64,000 nucleotides of DNA from an uncultured Clostridium sp. (lineage in GTDB: Bacteria > Bacillota > Clostridia > TANB77 > CAG-508), in NCBI GenBank assembly GCA_945865665.1, contig CAMBEE010000005.1, forward strand, positions 17,186-81,185. The letters run 5' to 3'. Below the pieces are notes generated by a model that saw only the letters and a program-made list of their open reading frames with translations, did no database searches and was not told where the DNA came from. A program made the translations under genes and the position numbers. Every line of letters starts with the position of its first letter. Position 1 is the first letter of the stretch. Positions 35,071-41,062 of this stretch are shown in pieces.

Positions 35071-35427
35071 TTCTTTTGTCGAATCTTGTCATTTTGTTAT
35101 TTGCTTTATTTTTCTTTTGTTTTAAATATTTCCCAAAAGCAAAAAGAATATTCATTTCTGAATATTCTTTTACATAATTTAAGTTTTTCAACCCAACTAT
35201 TGACTTTCAGCCACTATTATATCATATCACAGCTAAAACAAAAATCTCCAGTTCTTTTAAATAAGAACTGAAGATTTAATGGTGCCAACGAAGTAGTTAT
35301 CTACAACTTTTTTGGCTCTCATAACGATTGATTCAAAAATCAATCAATTTATTAAAGTATATCATATTTTCTATAAATTGCAATAAATTTCTTCAAAAAA
35401 ATTGCCACGAAATTTTGTTCTTAAGTA

Positions 35428-35456
35428 TTGATTTTTATTATTTCCTATGCTATACT
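35428..35456 (+). promoter_or_regulatory. sigma-A-type promoter for the small hydrophobic-peptide transcript
   Basis: TTGATT-17-TGcTATACT (extended -10). Confidence 0.55.
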
Positions 35457-35539
35457 GTCTAACATAGGAAATGAGAATAAACAGATGTGGTTTGCCACTT
35501 TTAATCCACAACTTATGTTGTGAGTGAGGAGGTGGTACT

Positions 35540-35650
35540 ATGATAGAAGCTGTTTTATTAGAAATAATATACTTACTTTTATTTGGTTTAGTTGTCGAAA
35601 CTATTATAGTATTTGCCTTAGTTATACTAGTTATAATTTTAAGCAAATAG
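35540..35650 (+). CDS. 36-aa hydrophobic peptide, candidate type I toxin (MIEAVLLEIIYLLLFGLVVETIIVFALVILVIILSK)
   Basis: Perfect RBS GAGGAGG 8 nt upstream; a single TM helix. Not in the track because it is under 60 aa. Confidence 0.4.
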   Translation: MIEAVLLEIIYLLLFGLVVETIIVFALVILVIILSK

Positions 35651-35654
35651 ACAA

Positions 35655-35698
35655 TAAAAAAACACATCTGTAATTTGACCGTTGTAGATGTGTTTTTA
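35655..35698. terminator. bidirectional rho-independent terminator shared by the convergent peptide mRNA and an antisense RNA
   Basis: A7-ACACATCT-loop16-AGATGTGT-T5. Confidence 0.7.
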
Positions 35699-35746
35699 CA
35701 TATTTTATCGGCAAACCACGTTTGTGGCTCTTCATTTCCTATATTT

Positions 35747-35775
35747 ATTATACAAAGATTTTATTGTTTTGTCAA
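35747..35775 (-). promoter_or_regulatory. consensus sigma-A promoter driving a ~75-nt antisense RNA toward the shared terminator
   Basis: Minus strand TTGACA-17-TATAAT, a perfect consensus. Confidence 0.55.
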
Positions 35776-35908
35776 TTGTTTTAAAAAGTTTTTCTAAATT
35801 GCTTCAATTGGTGATATTCCCAAATTGAGATGTTTATCATTTTAAACAAGAAATCGAAGTGAGCAAGATTATCTTGCCCACTTCTTCAATATTCAGTTGT
35901 AATGTCGT

Positions 35909-36391
35909 TTAGAAGATATCGCCCATATCGCCCATATAAGCATCCACTCCATTTTCAATAAGAGCCATATTAAGATTCCAGCCATCATCAACAATCTTAT
36001 TGTATCTTGCCAGAATTTCATCAGGACTCATCGTTGTATCTTCTTTGATGGTTGCTTTAGCATATCCTTCAGCTTTTCCGAAAGTAAAGAAACCTCTGAA
36101 CATAGGACTAAATGCAGTCCAACAGCCATCTCTTTCCAAATTCGGAAAGCAATAAAGAAGAGGTGAAAGCTCACGTTCTGTGGACATCTTCAGATATACC
36201 AGGTTATTGTTGGACTCATCATATTTGCCATGAATGTATCTTTCAGAATCATAGCGAGATGAATACTGTTCCTCCATATACCCCTTAATCTGCCCAGACT
36301 CTTCAAGTACAAAGTACCCCTTAAAGTCCGCGGGTAATTCGCTATACCGACCATTTTGCTGGAACTTCCCCTCAATGCTGAATACTTTCAT
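35909..36391 (-). CDS. hypothetical protein (160 aa), horizontally acquired cargo
   Basis: About 40% GC against a ~27% background; own promoter TTGAAA-17-TGgTATGAT and RBS GGAGG; no recognisable motif. Confidence 0.5.
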   Translation of the reverse strand: MKVFSIEGKFQQNGRYSELPADFKGYFVLEESGQIKGYMEEQYSSRYDSERYIHGKYDESNNNLVYLKMSTERELSPLLYCFPNLERDGCWTAFSPMFRGFFTFGKAEGYAKATIKEDTTMSPDEILARYNKIVDDGWNLNMALIENGVDAYMGDMGDIF

Positions 36392-36525
36392 ATTGTTTCC
36401 TCCTTACAATTGTAATATGGGATTTTACAACTTGCTATTTTTGTTTATTTCGCATAGCTACGAATATTTTACTTTAATATCATACCATATTTTACATAAA
36501 ATTTCAACTGAATTTCTCAAATTTA

Positions 36526-36831
36526 TTATGCCTTATAATTTACACTATTAAATAAATACAAAGCAACCTTATTTCTTTCAGTTTCAGTCATTTCCATAAT
36601 CTTAGCCATTGTAGACATTACAAGTTGATATTTTGCAAAATTTATTAAAGTAGTTCTATATTCTTCATCACCTTCTTTTAGCATAGTATCAAATTTCTCA
36701 TACATTTCAGTTTTATTGTATAAAATATTAGCCCAATCGCTTGTAGATAAACATATTCCAAGTATTAATTTATCTTTTATATCCATATCTTTAATTATAT
36801 TTATTACATTTTCAACTTTATTTTCTTCCAT
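36526..36831 (-). CDS. hypothetical protein (101 aa)
   Basis: Open ORF immediately downstream of the relaxase on the same strand. Confidence 0.4.
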   Translation of the reverse strand: MEENKVENVINIIKDMDIKDKLILGICLSTSDWANILYNKTEMYEKFDTMLKEGDEEYRTTLINFAKYQLVMSTMAKIMEMTETERNKVALYLFNSVNYKA

Positions 36832-36844
36832 AAATTTAGCTCCT

Positions 36845-38230
36845 TTACTTTAATTCCATATTATTTTTCTTTTTATTCTTATCAATTATTTCTTCTTTAG
36901 GTTTTACTTTTCTATAAATATTATTTGCAATTTCATTTTCATCATCAGTAAATATACCATTTTTATATAAATCATCACTAACAATTTTATAGTTCTCATT
37001 TTTATCAAAACAAATTCTTTTATGAAAATGTCCCATAATACTATGCCAAAAGTCTTTGAATTTCTGTAATTCTTGTTTTAATTTTTCTTTTTCAGCTTGT
37101 AGTCTATTTACAACCTTGTCTTTAGTTGTTAGTTTGCTTTTCAAGTTATCTATTTCATCTTCTTTTAGCTCTAATTGATATTTAAGTGAATGATTTTCTT
37201 TCGCTATTTTAAAAGAACTATACTCAAAATCTTTAATAGCCATATTTAAGTCATTTACACTTCTAATAGTTTTAGTGGTATCTTTTACATCTTTTGTAAA
37301 ACTTTTGATTTTTTCAATATCTTCGTTTGAAATAACCTTATTATTTTTATTAAATGGGGTAGGTTTTAAATTATCTAATATTGTACTTATATCTTTACTC
37401 GTATTATCAAGTTTTTTAGTTTGGCTATTAGCTTCAGCAAGTTTTTTCTCTTTCTTTTCCAGTTGCTTTTTTATATTTCTATAATTTCCCATATCATTAA
37501 CATTTATGTCTTGATTTCTGCCTTTTTGCTTTTCTTTTAATTTAAATTCTATATCATAGAACTTGTTAAAAGACTTAATACAAGCATTTCTCATTTTATC
37601 TTGAATTGCAGTTAATGACTCTTTTGTAAAAAGTTTTGTTTTACCAACTTGTTTTTTCATGCCTCTAGGAGAGTTCTCTATTATAGGTACTCCAACAATG
37701 TGCATGTGGGGAGAGGTTTCATCAAAATGAATTGTTGCATTTGCTATTTTAAAAGTTGGCACAATTTTAGCTAATTCCTTAACTTGTTCATTATACACAT
37801 CAATCATTTTTATTCTATATTCTTGCTCTTTACCGTTCCAAAAATCCATATCTCCAAGCTCTATTATAATTTCACAGGCTATATCATTTTGTGAGTCACA
37901 CACTTTTTCAAAATAGTTGTCTATTTTTCTATCATCTCTAGTCTGTTTATTATTATATTCAATACGAGCTTCTTCAAATTCTTGTAAATATAAATCTTGC
38001 ACATCATTTACAATATTATCTGTACCATAAATAACTCTAATCAAATCTCTTTGATTATCATAATCTCTTAAGTTGTGTTTATTAACTCTTGATAAATCAT
38101 TTGCATTTTGAATTGCATTATTTGATAGAGAAGTAGTACCAGATACATTTTCTTTAGAAACTTTCTTTGCTAATTTACTTTTATTCTTATCACTACCTAA
38201 ATGAAAAGAATATGCTAATTCTTGCTCCAA
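36845..38230 (-). CDS. plasmid recombination/mobilization relaxase, MobV (Mob_Pre) family
   Basis: N-terminal LAYSFHLG (catalytic Tyr), KHNLRD, and the HxDE..PHxH box (IHFDETSPHMHIV); long coiled-coil C-terminus. Likely TTG start after RBS AAGGAGGTG inside the track ORF. Confidence 0.8.
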   Translation of the reverse strand: MEQELAYSFHLGSDKNKSKLAKKVSKENVSGTTSLSNNAIQNANDLSRVNKHNLRDYDNQRDLIRVIYGTDNIVNDVQDLYLQEFEEARIEYNNKQTRDDRKIDNYFEKVCDSQNDIACEIIIELGDMDFWNGKEQEYRIKMIDVYNEQVKELAKIVPTFKIANATIHFDETSPHMHIVGVPIIENSPRGMKKQVGKTKLFTKESLTAIQDKMRNACIKSFNKFYDIEFKLKEKQKGRNQDINVNDMGNYRNIKKQLEKKEKKLAEANSQTKKLDNTSKDISTILDNLKPTPFNKNNKVISNEDIEKIKSFTKDVKDTTKTIRSVNDLNMAIKDFEYSSFKIAKENHSLKYQLELKEDEIDNLKSKLTTKDKVVNRLQAEKEKLKQELQKFKDFWHSIMGHFHKRICFDKNENYKIVSDDLYKNGIFTDDENEIANNIYRKVKPKEEIIDKNKKKNNMELK

Positions 38231-38428
38231 TGAAAACACCTCCTTGAAATTTCTTCGAAGCACAGGACTTTGACCTTGTCATAAGTCCTAACCCCCTATA
38301 TGTTATGACATACTATCATAACATGGGGGCTCTGCGAGGCAATAAAATTTATTTTTTGCAAATAAATTTTATTCAAATTAACTATCGCCACTTTCATTTT
38401 TGTTATCACAAAAACAAAACGTGCCACG

Positions 38429-40352
<1,924 letters not shown>

Positions 40353-40582
40353 TTTCAATTTGCATAACCTCCTAACTTCAAAAAAAGAGACATCAAAGTA
40401 CACACGAGTACTAATGACATCTCTTAAATCCGTTTATCACAAAATAAAATACAATATAATTGTAATATAATATAATTTTTTCAAAGTACTCGTAAATCTA
40501 TATTTGCTATTGCCCAAGAAAATATAGATAATTAATTGCCTATATTATATCACGATTTAAAGAAATGTCAATTTTTTACAAA

Positions 40583-40864
40583 TTATATTTTTTTCAAATA
40601 TTCTTCTAACTCTGATAATTTAATCTTTTTAGTCAAATTTGAAATATACACATCATTTGAATAATTAAAAACTAAAAAAGTAATATTTTTAATAATCACT
40701 CTATGTGGTTCAATGTATGTAAGATTAGTTTTCTCTAATTTTCTAACACTACCATTGATAAAAGTAGGATTAACTTTAGAAAACTCACATATAAATTCAA
40801 GTCGTTGTTTTAGACATTCCTCAAATTCTAATTCTTGCTTAATTATCTTCATTTCAAACACCAT
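40583..40864 (-). CDS. hypothetical protein (93 aa) upstream of the recombinase
   Basis: Open ORF with no recognised motif. Confidence 0.4.
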   Translation of the reverse strand: MVFEMKIIKQELEFEECLKQRLEFICEFSKVNPTFINGSVRKLEKTNLTYIEPHRVIIKNITFLVFNYSNDVYISNLTKKIKLSELEEYLKKI

Positions 40865-40974
40865 CCTTTCATTGTAATTTTAGGATGATTTTTTCGCAAA
40901 AGAAAAAAATCAACCATTTCTGATTGATTTTTGTATCTATCTGTTCTATAAAAAAGTTCGAACAGAAACGTCAT

Positions 40975-41062
40975 TGGTGCAGATGGCCGGAATCGAACCG
41001 GCACGGTTTATTCAACCGCAGGATTTTAAGTCCTGTGCGTCTACCAGTTCCGCCACATCTGC
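40975..41062 (-). tRNA. tRNA-Leu (anticodon UAA)
   Basis: Cloverleaf read by hand: 7-bp acceptor GCAGATG/CATCTGC, anticodon loop CTTAAAA, long variable arm, T-arm GGTTCGATTCC, encoded CCA. Confidence 0.9.

Follow-up and report, generated by a model that had tools for sequence, protein, structure and literature searches.

A predicted eight-stranded barrel protein carried as cargo by a tRNA-Leu-targeting mobilizable element of gut Clostridia

Results

A small mobilizable element downstream of a tRNA-Leu gene

The gene described here, ORF160, lies in a 64,000-nucleotide stretch of contig CAMBEE010000005.1 (positions 17,186 to 81,185 of the forward strand) from an uncultured Clostridium sp. This whole stretch is referred to as the window, all positions without a locus name are counted within it, and related loci fetched for comparison are referred to by L numbers. 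ORF160 is part of an integrative mobilizable element that occupies the 3′ end of a tRNA-Leu gene (anticodon taa). Following the minus strand from this tRNA gene, the order is orf93, a large serine recombinase, a MobV relaxase (mob), orf101, ORF160, a two-strand module resembling a type I toxin–antitoxin (TA) system and, finally, a conserved end segment (Table 1). Next to the recombinase and the relaxase, the remaining open reading frames (ORFs) of this 5.7-kb element are orf93, orf101, ORF160 and the gene of a 36-amino-acid (36-aa) peptide, and the relaxase comes without mating-pore or coupling proteins.

ORF160 is a compositionally distinct gene with its own expression signals

A first-pass annotation of the sequence had singled out ORF160 as a GC-rich (~40%) 160-aa reading frame far from its background, and this description holds: the GC content of ORF160 is 0.400, compared to 0.286 for the whole window and 0.22–0.29 for the remaining genes of the element. 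When set against the window's remaining non-overlapping ORFs of 120 aa or more (38 in total), the GC content at third codon positions (GC3) of ORF160 (0.391) is located ~7.9 standard deviations over the mean (mean 0.159, standard deviation 0.029, maximum 0.237), and nearly all of the GC excess is confined to this third codon position. This third-position composition suggests a donor of ~40% GC or more as the origin of the gene. In most low-GC loci the gene exceeds its surroundings by 5–18 points of GC, and the copy in L020 is fully matched to its host.

The possibility of a spurious reading frame was excluded by the ratio of nonsynonymous to synonymous substitution rates (dN/dS), which was 0.06–0.2 in most pairwise comparisons among nine homologues, with dS between 0.5 and 1.7. 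A few pairs involving the divergent L007 or L019 copies yielded higher dN/dS values of up to 0.42.

The promoter (TTGAAA-17-TATGAT), strong ribosome-binding site (RBS) and downstream hairpin that had been read from the sequence at first pass are all present. Because promoter-like matches are frequent in this AT-rich DNA (57 found in a scan versus 38 expected), the promoter match alone carries little weight, and the better argument for real expression signals is that the promoter, the 5′ untranslated region (5′UTR) and the terminator are kept across related loci. Specifically, the –35/–10 pair is retained in position and sequence in most of these loci (TTGAAA in 7 of 10 aligned), and the terminator shows 83–93% identity in most cassette copies with the same promoter and 5′UTR (75% in L012), with flanks at random level of similarity. 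Conservation of the terminator moreover exceeds that of synonymous sites. Given its extended –10 promoter, consensus AGGAGG RBS and strong terminator, ORF160 is expected to be highly expressed, which would fit a protein acting stoichiometrically.

The 5′UTR harbors a 16-nt near-palindrome, TTCGTAGCTATGCGAA (36449..36464), that was found exactly, and once per locus, in 15 fetched loci. Synonymous sites diverge by 22–31% among loci having the same 5′UTR, yet TTCGTAGCTATGCGAA is invariant. A second palindrome adjoining the RBS displays a compensated change (TTACAATTGTAA versus AACAATTGTT), and both palindromes may be operator sites for some regulator. With regard to a regulatory RNA, the 5′UTR gave no match in Rfam, and its predicted structure is weak (–6 kcal/mol), with compensatory changes at one predicted pair only. 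Altogether, we are highly confident that ORF160 is a real, selected gene equipped with its own promoter, 5′UTR, RBS and terminator.

ORF160 is optional cargo within a promoter-to-terminator cassette

Sibling elements differ in what follows orf101. The window reads mob-orf101-ORF160-TA-end, L011 reads mob-orf101-TA-end and is devoid of ORF160, and L014 reads mob-orf101-AbiJ-243aa-ORF160-end, where the space between orf101 and the ORF160 cassette (L014 1050–2710) is filled by a homologue of AbiJ (PADLOC 4e-82; Pfam Abi_C) and by a 243-aa ORF lacking annotation. The earlier proposal that ORF160 is the cargo of a mobilizable element is thereby upheld, as the ends of the element could be mapped (see below), the gene is optional among siblings, and its composition is foreign to the host. 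It can be said with little doubt that ORF160 constitutes optional cargo of a 5.7-kb element with recombinase and MobV relaxase residing at tRNA-Leu CCA ends. On a side note, the 3.7-kb L014 contig is binned as 'uncultured Rickettsiales', probably in error, as what it encodes is Clostridia-like.

Beyond such elements, a homology block bounded by 36553/36527 and 35841/35856 recurs in unrelated contexts at 75–89% nucleotide identity, while the flanks drop to random level. In L007 and L017 this cassette has a two-component system on one side and an efflux-pump subunit on the other; it is found in L001 between glycosyltransferase and ABC transporter genes (270 bp past tRNA-Gln), in L016 after tRNA-Met and a PD-(D/E)XK gene, and in L012 in an island of small helix-turn-helix genes. 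A 42%-identical homologue is located 220 bp past tRNA-Gly in L022 (Clostridium sp. CAG:793). In three loci, a homologue lies 0.2–0.9 kb downstream of tRNA-Gln, tRNA-Met or tRNA-Gly, and in L008, L009 and L018 an empty tRNA-Leu site precedes it by 1.4 kb. At tRNA-Leu, L015 and L019 have elements that are decayed or in tandem and nevertheless keep ORF160.

Ahead of its cassette, L007 has retained the final ~27 nt of orf101, suggesting that the solitary cassettes are leftovers of elements. No conserved repeat was found at the cassette ends that could explain its movement, and a 9-bp inverted repeat flanking the ORF in the window is not kept elsewhere; relocation may simply consist of the cassette being left behind as elements decay. 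We therefore consider it well founded that the ~0.7-kb promoter-to-terminator block behaves as a unit that outlasts the loss of the mobility genes, both beside tRNA genes and at other places.

Ends, target site and movement of the carrier element

The sequence directly following the tRNA CCA end, ATGACGTATCTGTTCGAAC..., is common to different tRNA-Leu genes (taa in the window and L015; tag in L019, L008 and L041), and because it is kept behind these different genes it was assigned to the element. At the opposite side, the right-end segment finishes with ...GTTGTAGATAACTAC..GTTGGCACCA (35286..35280), beyond which the sequence is particular to each locus and opens with a terminator hairpin that is likewise specific to it. 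In the window, this hairpin is probably the displaced native tRNA-Leu terminator. An empty site is present in L008 (6427–6520), where an intact tRNA-Leu(caa) ending in ...ATCGGCACCA is followed by GTATGCATGTTTTTATGGG..., and in the occupied site of L011 (2430–2470) this same host sequence appears after the element end segment (...CAACGGCACCA joined to GTATGGATGTTTTTATGGG). The left and right attachment sites (attL and attR) have GCACCA in common. In addition, the homology of L041, a human-gut contig, to the window extends exactly from 41066 to 35275, with unrelated genes on both sides and a tRNA-Leu(tag) as target (L041 2354–2450 and 8090–8110). Based on the limits of this homology and on the empty and occupied sites, the element was delimited to approximately 35280..40974 (5.7 kb), and these sequence comparisons place its ends within a few bases. 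Every copy with a visible left end is located at the CCA end of a tRNA-Leu gene, and three anticodons (taa, tag and caa) are represented.

Between the window and the human-gut metagenome copies L037–L041, the region from mob to the right end is 99.7–100% identical, except for the TA-like module, which has a 9-nt gap in L037 and L041 and for this reason is 98% identical in L041, but orf93 and the recombinase are only 85–88% identical. The element is thus a mosaic, which implies recent module exchange between related elements. From these sequences, it is very probable that the element family is modular and has recently moved between gut Clostridia genomes.

The right-end segment carries an outward-facing promoter (TTGCAA-16-TG-n-TATACT at 35383–35356) and ~75 conserved nucleotides with hairpins up to attR. 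It could be a small RNA, a set of recombinase binding sites or a promoter crossing the joint of an excised circle. Its interpretation as a displaced tRNA fragment was rejected since GCACCA alone is common with the tRNA, and a likeness of its GTTGTAGAT motif to a Cas12a-type repeat was dropped since the stem order is reversed with respect to that repeat. Likewise, 35326–35346 and 40921–40941 were rejected as terminal inverted repeats, as the left arm falls within a terminator-like hairpin after the tRNA.

A first pattern search of metagenomes for the empty site yielded none, and the empty site described above was later seen among the loci already fetched. The flanking DUF5662 protein had no record in an exact-match look-up. 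Tandem and decayed copies were also seen at this tRNA-Leu hotspot. In L015 (4470–10700), a remnant separates two end segments; L037–L039 carry a piece of another orf93 directly after attR; and L008 (2000–3270) contains a mini-element of ~1 kb at tRNA-Leu(tag), consisting of a left end, a 163-aa ORF and a right end.

Distribution of the ORF160 family

The identical protein was found on 462 public contigs (NCBI, JGI, ENA and Logan), where any name given to it is 'hypothetical protein'. The close subfamily comprises ~30 clusters of 54–90% identity, and protein identity across different hosts amounts to 79–92%. All named hosts are uncultured gut Clostridia of human, mouse or rabbit. A profile search yielded 114 representatives at the 50% level, of which nearly all full-length ones are single-domain proteins of ~140–200 aa. 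Neither plasmid nor phage relatives of ORF160 were found by tblastn, and a scan of viral contigs revealed none either. In none of ~15 contexts did the family have a conserved neighbor gene.

Distant members, 22–30% identical to ORF160, reside in non-mobile, core chromosomal contexts. Single members adjoin glyA (with a sortase or a bile salt hydrolase, CBAH, on the other side) or rpoBC, and L024 (5483–6483) encodes two diverged tandem paralogues of 164 and 160 aa between a GH25 lysozyme and rpsB-tsf, the 160-aa paralogue being GC-rich for its locus (0.395 versus 0.289). Arrangements related to that of L024 were observed in L025, L026, L029–L031, L035 and L036. A family link to bile salt hydrolase, considered because CBAH precedes the L027 member, was dropped as the syntenic L032 is devoid of CBAH. 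Clear homologues of housekeeping function outside mobile contexts, which would have spoken against the cargo status proposed at first pass, did not emerge, since these core relatives are only 22–30% identical and have no assigned function.

Predicted structure and conservation of the protein

In agreement with the initial impression that ORF160 has no recognizable motif and no membrane segment, the protein did not match any family in Pfam, NCBIfam, PADLOC (E up to 1) or PHROGs, and its maximal Kyte–Doolittle score of 0.48 (19-residue window) indicates that a transmembrane segment is absent from this acidic protein (pI 4.65). A search of 82 diverse relatives against Pfam did not retrieve a family either, and profile searches of PDB sequences returned chance matches only (E > 0.1).

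Structure prediction and a structural search, as had been suggested at first pass, were both run. AlphaFold predicted a barrel, with a predicted local distance difference test (pLDDT) score of 91.7 from 24 sequences, and a pLDDT of 96.1 and predicted template modeling (pTM) score of 0.91 from 82 diverse sequences (all five models at least 94). Both runs gave the same layout of eight up-and-down strands (residues 2–117) followed by two or three helices (residues 123–156), and the predicted model thus has the eight-stranded antiparallel up-and-down barrel by which calycins are recognized. Foldseek, on the other hand, found nothing at E < 0.001 in the PDB or among viral structures. The placement of ORF160 in the calycin-like fold class is purely a prediction.

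Across the 82 diverse members, strong conservation is limited to G25, G37, G55, G89, G109, P77 and positions with an aromatic or hydrophobic residue. The polar residues R51, K68, E117, E41 and N141 are conserved in only 67–77%, and no polar residue is invariant. This pattern of conservation suggests that ORF160 is probably non-enzymatic and serves for scaffolding or binding. The wider family reads G-x-W at residues 14–16, with the W present in 63% of members and replaced by Y16 in ORF160 itself; the lipocalin signature combines G-x-W with a partner basic residue, and sequence searches gave no link of the family to lipocalins or avidins.

Other genes of the element

The recombinase matches the Pfam models Resolvase, Recombinase and Zn_ribbon_recom and a CcrA/XisF-like model of NCBIfam. 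Its reading frame in the window is split by a one-base frameshift directly after the catalytic-serine motif, and the L041 version is intact (642 aa). Either this frameshift is real and leaves the element stranded, or it is due to an error of sequencing.

In the TA-like module, the 36-aa peptide is 62% identical to, and shares the same ...ILSK end with, peptides encoded in L009, L011 (two copies) and L018, and the module is missing from the sibling elements L014 and L015, both of which carry ORF160. Because the module contains a 36-nt inverted DNA repeat (35461–35496 and 35710–35745), its two RNAs would be alike rather than complementary.

Table 1. Positions of the carrier element, its genes and its signals in the window
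Feature	Position	Strand	Remarks
tRNA-Leu (anticodon taa)	40975..41062	-	integration target
Integrative mobilizable element, ~5.7 kb	35280..40974	-	from attL at the tRNA-Leu CCA end to attR at ...CGTTGGCACCA
orf93	40583..40864	-	small gene upstream of the recombinase; no family match; also in L041
Recombinase promoter, TTGACA-16-TATAAT	40571..40544	-	perfect; upstream of the gene
Large serine recombinase	38429..40358	-	frameshifted near 40290
MobV / Mob_Pre relaxase (mob)	36845..38263	-	Pfam PF01076 2.5e-14; NCBIfam MobV
orf101	36526..36831	-	conserved relaxase companion; after mob in L011, L014 and L041; no family match
ORF160 promoter, TTGAAA-17-TATGAT	36479..36507	-	TG-n before the –10 (extended –10)
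ORF160 5′UTR, ~80 nt	36392..36472	-	holds two palindromes and the RBS
ORF160 RBS, AGGAGG	36399..36404	-	7 nt ahead of the ATG
ORF160 coding sequence	35909..36391	-	ATG start; 160 aa, 18.5 kDa, pI 4.65, soluble; supported by dN/dS and GC3
ORF160 intrinsic terminator hairpin	35856..35884	-	13 pairs, 6 of them G-C, then T-rich tail; marks conserved cassette end
Module resembling a type I TA system	35428..35775	both	between ORF160 and the right end
Convergent promoter of the TA-like module, TTGACA-17-TATAAT	35775..35747	-	perfect
Bidirectional terminator of the TA-like module	35658..35697		
Gene of 36-aa hydrophobic peptide (MIEAVLLEIIYLLLFGLVVETIIVFALVILVIILSK)	35540..35650	+	strong RBS; own promoter at 35428..35456
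Conserved right-end segment	35280..35404	-	outward promoter, two small hairpins, attR core GGCACCA (35286..35280)
Host terminator hairpin	35242..35277	-	outside attR; each locus has its own hairpin after GGCACCA

Discussion

The analysis of this locus delineated a new unannotated protein family, predicted to have a fold of a familiar kind, whose carrier is a new variant within a well-known type of element. As to what the protein does, the reading that we rank first is that ORF160 is an abundant, non-enzymatic intracellular protein capturing a constant, probably small compound, a proposal that leans on the modeled fold and to which we attach a probability of about 0.3. According to this proposal, the acidic and soluble avidin/lipocalin-like eight-stranded barrel, with its two or three C-terminal helices, would act alone and stoichiometrically, without catalysis. 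The sequestered ligand would be constant, and probably small and hydrophobic or aromatic, and its capture would provide the carrier cell with tolerance or another benefit independent of the element. Such an element-independent benefit would in turn explain why purifying selection acts on the gene even in decayed elements. Small-compound capture was placed slightly first because the fold class consists mostly of ligand binders, because purifying selection keeps the protein conserved in different hosts, and because the gene outlives the decay of elements and has strong expression signals. In a broader and no less tentative sense, ORF160 could be the first representative of a protective single-gene trait not described so far, which mobile elements would spread among human and animal gut Clostridia, with the cytoplasmic barrel capturing either a toxic compound or a host defense protein, and with hosts keeping the unit after the element has decayed.

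A number of observations weigh against this picture. The conserved glycines and aromatics could be structural only, and the acidity of the protein suits the binding of a basic protein at least as well as that of a small molecule. Conflict genes, namely AbiJ, the type I toxin-like peptide and HipA, neighbor ORF160 in several loci, with the PD-(D/E)XK nuclease and Schlafen/AlbA_2 neighbors possibly being conflict genes as well, and such a neighborhood points to a role in defense or counter-defense. Regarding the provenance of the gene, the distant homologue in the core context of L024 also has a raised GC3 (0.354, in a locus of ~29% GC), so that foreign origin is perhaps not the sole cause of the composition of ORF160.

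Capture of a protein instead of a small compound, be it for counter-defense, immunity or the control of a regulator, ranks close behind as a possible, if still doubtful, alternative. In its most explicit form, ORF160 would be a protein-binding inhibitor, i.e. an anti-restriction or anti-defense factor that eases establishment of the element in new hosts, or an orphan immunity protein or antitoxin against a toxin or nuclease encoded elsewhere; we hold this version, too, to be conceivable without being probable. It would suit a small, acidic, stand-alone protein with a strong promoter of its own and no catalytic motif, which is optional cargo in a variable region where a sibling carries AbiJ and the window a type I toxin-like module, and other copies of which are found near HipA or near the PD-(D/E)XK nuclease and the Schlafen/AlbA_2 protein. 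The tandem diverged paralogues of L024 moreover resemble immunity gene arrays. However, a dN/dS of mostly 0.06–0.2 and 79–92% identity across hosts are unusual for arms-race proteins, none of ~15 contexts has a cognate toxin gene next to the family member, and the toxin-like peptide is missing from two siblings that have ORF160. Phage, plasmid and viral-contig relatives as well as PADLOC matches were equally lacking, and distant relatives sit among the housekeeping genes rpsB, glyA and rpoBC. The function in immunity, phage resistance or other resistance that had been thought plausible at first pass is thus not borne out, given that no defense-family match and no phage or plasmid homologue turned up; for an arms-race role more generally, the AbiJ neighbor in L014 speaks in favor, but the mostly strong purifying selection and the core context of distant members oppose it.

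That ORF160 itself would be a single-gene anti-phage defense or abortive-infection protein seems unlikely to us. tRNA-linked integration hotspots often gather defense genes, and ORF160 copies are indeed found at such hotspots, while in L014 the cargo region is common with AbiJ and a Cap15-type nucleotide-binding barrel figured among the weak fold matches. Cap15 nevertheless requires transmembrane helices, and ORF160 has neither a membrane segment nor an effector domain, is acidic, is without conserved catalytic residues and matches nothing in PADLOC or Pfam; its strong and apparently constitutive expression signals furthermore suggest a non-toxic product. An enzyme using the barrel as a reaction chamber, like some barrel cyclases, isomerases and hydratases, is similarly improbable, as no polar residue is invariant in the family and the neighborhood contains no conserved partner gene of biosynthesis or metabolism. 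Least probable is that ORF160 is an ordinary host gene beside a tRNA integration hotspot and not cargo at all. The 22–30% identical members in core contexts (rpsB-tsf, glyA and rpoBC) and the homologues situated 1.4 kb past an empty tRNA-Leu site (L008, L009 and L018) would be in line with this, but the window copy lies between orf101 and the mapped right end and travels with the element to new flanks at 100% identity, its GC3 is ~7.9 standard deviations above that of host genes, and close homologues occur in at least eight unrelated contexts. For the window copy, this explanation is largely refuted by the comparison with L041. Capture of a small compound stays our preferred, though tentative, reading.

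Regarding the carrier, Tn4451 has accessory genes for TnpV, TnpY and TnpW, and its catP is located between tnpV and tnpY. The first-pass annotation had compared the present element to Tn4451 and the place of ORF160 to that of catP, and this comparison stands only for the combination of recombinase and MobV relaxase. Tn4451 and Tn4453 from C. perfringens and C. difficile (TnpX, TnpZ, catP) are likewise ~6 kb in size with a large serine recombinase and a MobV relaxase, and they share with the present element the lack of a transfer apparatus and the presence of a separately expressed accessory gene (PMC5704250). In contrast, the relaxase and recombinase found here are at most 39% and 30% identical, respectively, to any plasmid-borne relative, and no TnpV-like gene was detected, orf93 and orf101 having no match to TnpV or to anything else in Pfam; of the three accessory genes, TnpV alone was represented by a model in the searched libraries. 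Moreover, the gene order here is recombinase-mob-orf101-cargo, with a cargo that is no recognized resistance gene and lies downstream of mob. Finally, the target specificity of Tn4451 is low (PMC5704250), whereas insertion in the present case is specific for the tRNA-Leu 3′ end. Judged by its sequence, the carrier works like a Tn4451-type mobilizable element but falls outside that family because of its distant proteins, the lack of a detected TnpV-like gene, the other gene order and the tRNA-Leu specificity.

MOBV1 mobilizable elements of gut Firmicutes such as Faecalibacterium are likewise small, relaxase-only and equipped with assorted cargo (PMC12084326, PMC5704250). They pile up side by side at attachment sites and decay to remnants (PMC12084326), as observed here in L015 and L037–L039. 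For serine-recombinase elements, insertion is reported to fall usually within protein genes, and it is tyrosine integrases that typically use tRNA 3′ ends (PMC5704250). Targets of the type seen here, where three tRNA-Leu isoacceptor genes are occupied at their CCA end, are not described for serine recombinases in that work.

With respect to the protein, no sequence relationship to calycin-like barrels (avidin/streptavidin, lipocalins and nitrobindin) was detectable. ORF160 further differs from these in being cytoplasmic, in having two or three C-terminal helices, and in that no biotin- or heme-binding residues were identified in it. Since its matches to calycins are no better than those to designed or outer-membrane barrels, the resemblance denotes a fold class and not a family. 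As a short single-gene unit recurring in different contexts, the ORF160 cassette is also reminiscent of integron gene cassettes. The latter are promoterless and end in an attC site, whereas the ORF160 unit brings along a promoter, a 5′UTR and a terminator, and no conserved repeat marks its ends.

For a specialist of mobile elements, the overall finding holds little to surprise, and if ORF160 turned out to be a generic binder without selectable phenotype, it would be ordinary, i.e. one more hypothetical cargo gene. Regardless of its function, the carrier is a clean and fully delimited serine-recombinase mobilizable element that targets several tRNA-Leu genes, which makes it useful for the annotation of elements and a possible source of a site-specific recombinase. 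ORF160 itself is worth experimentation because of its prevalence and conservation. If ORF160 confers tolerance or counter-defense, it would represent a widely spread trait of gut Clostridia that current annotation pipelines leave unnamed, and an unannotated family of ~114 clusters (at 50% identity) would join the catalogue of mobile-element cargo.

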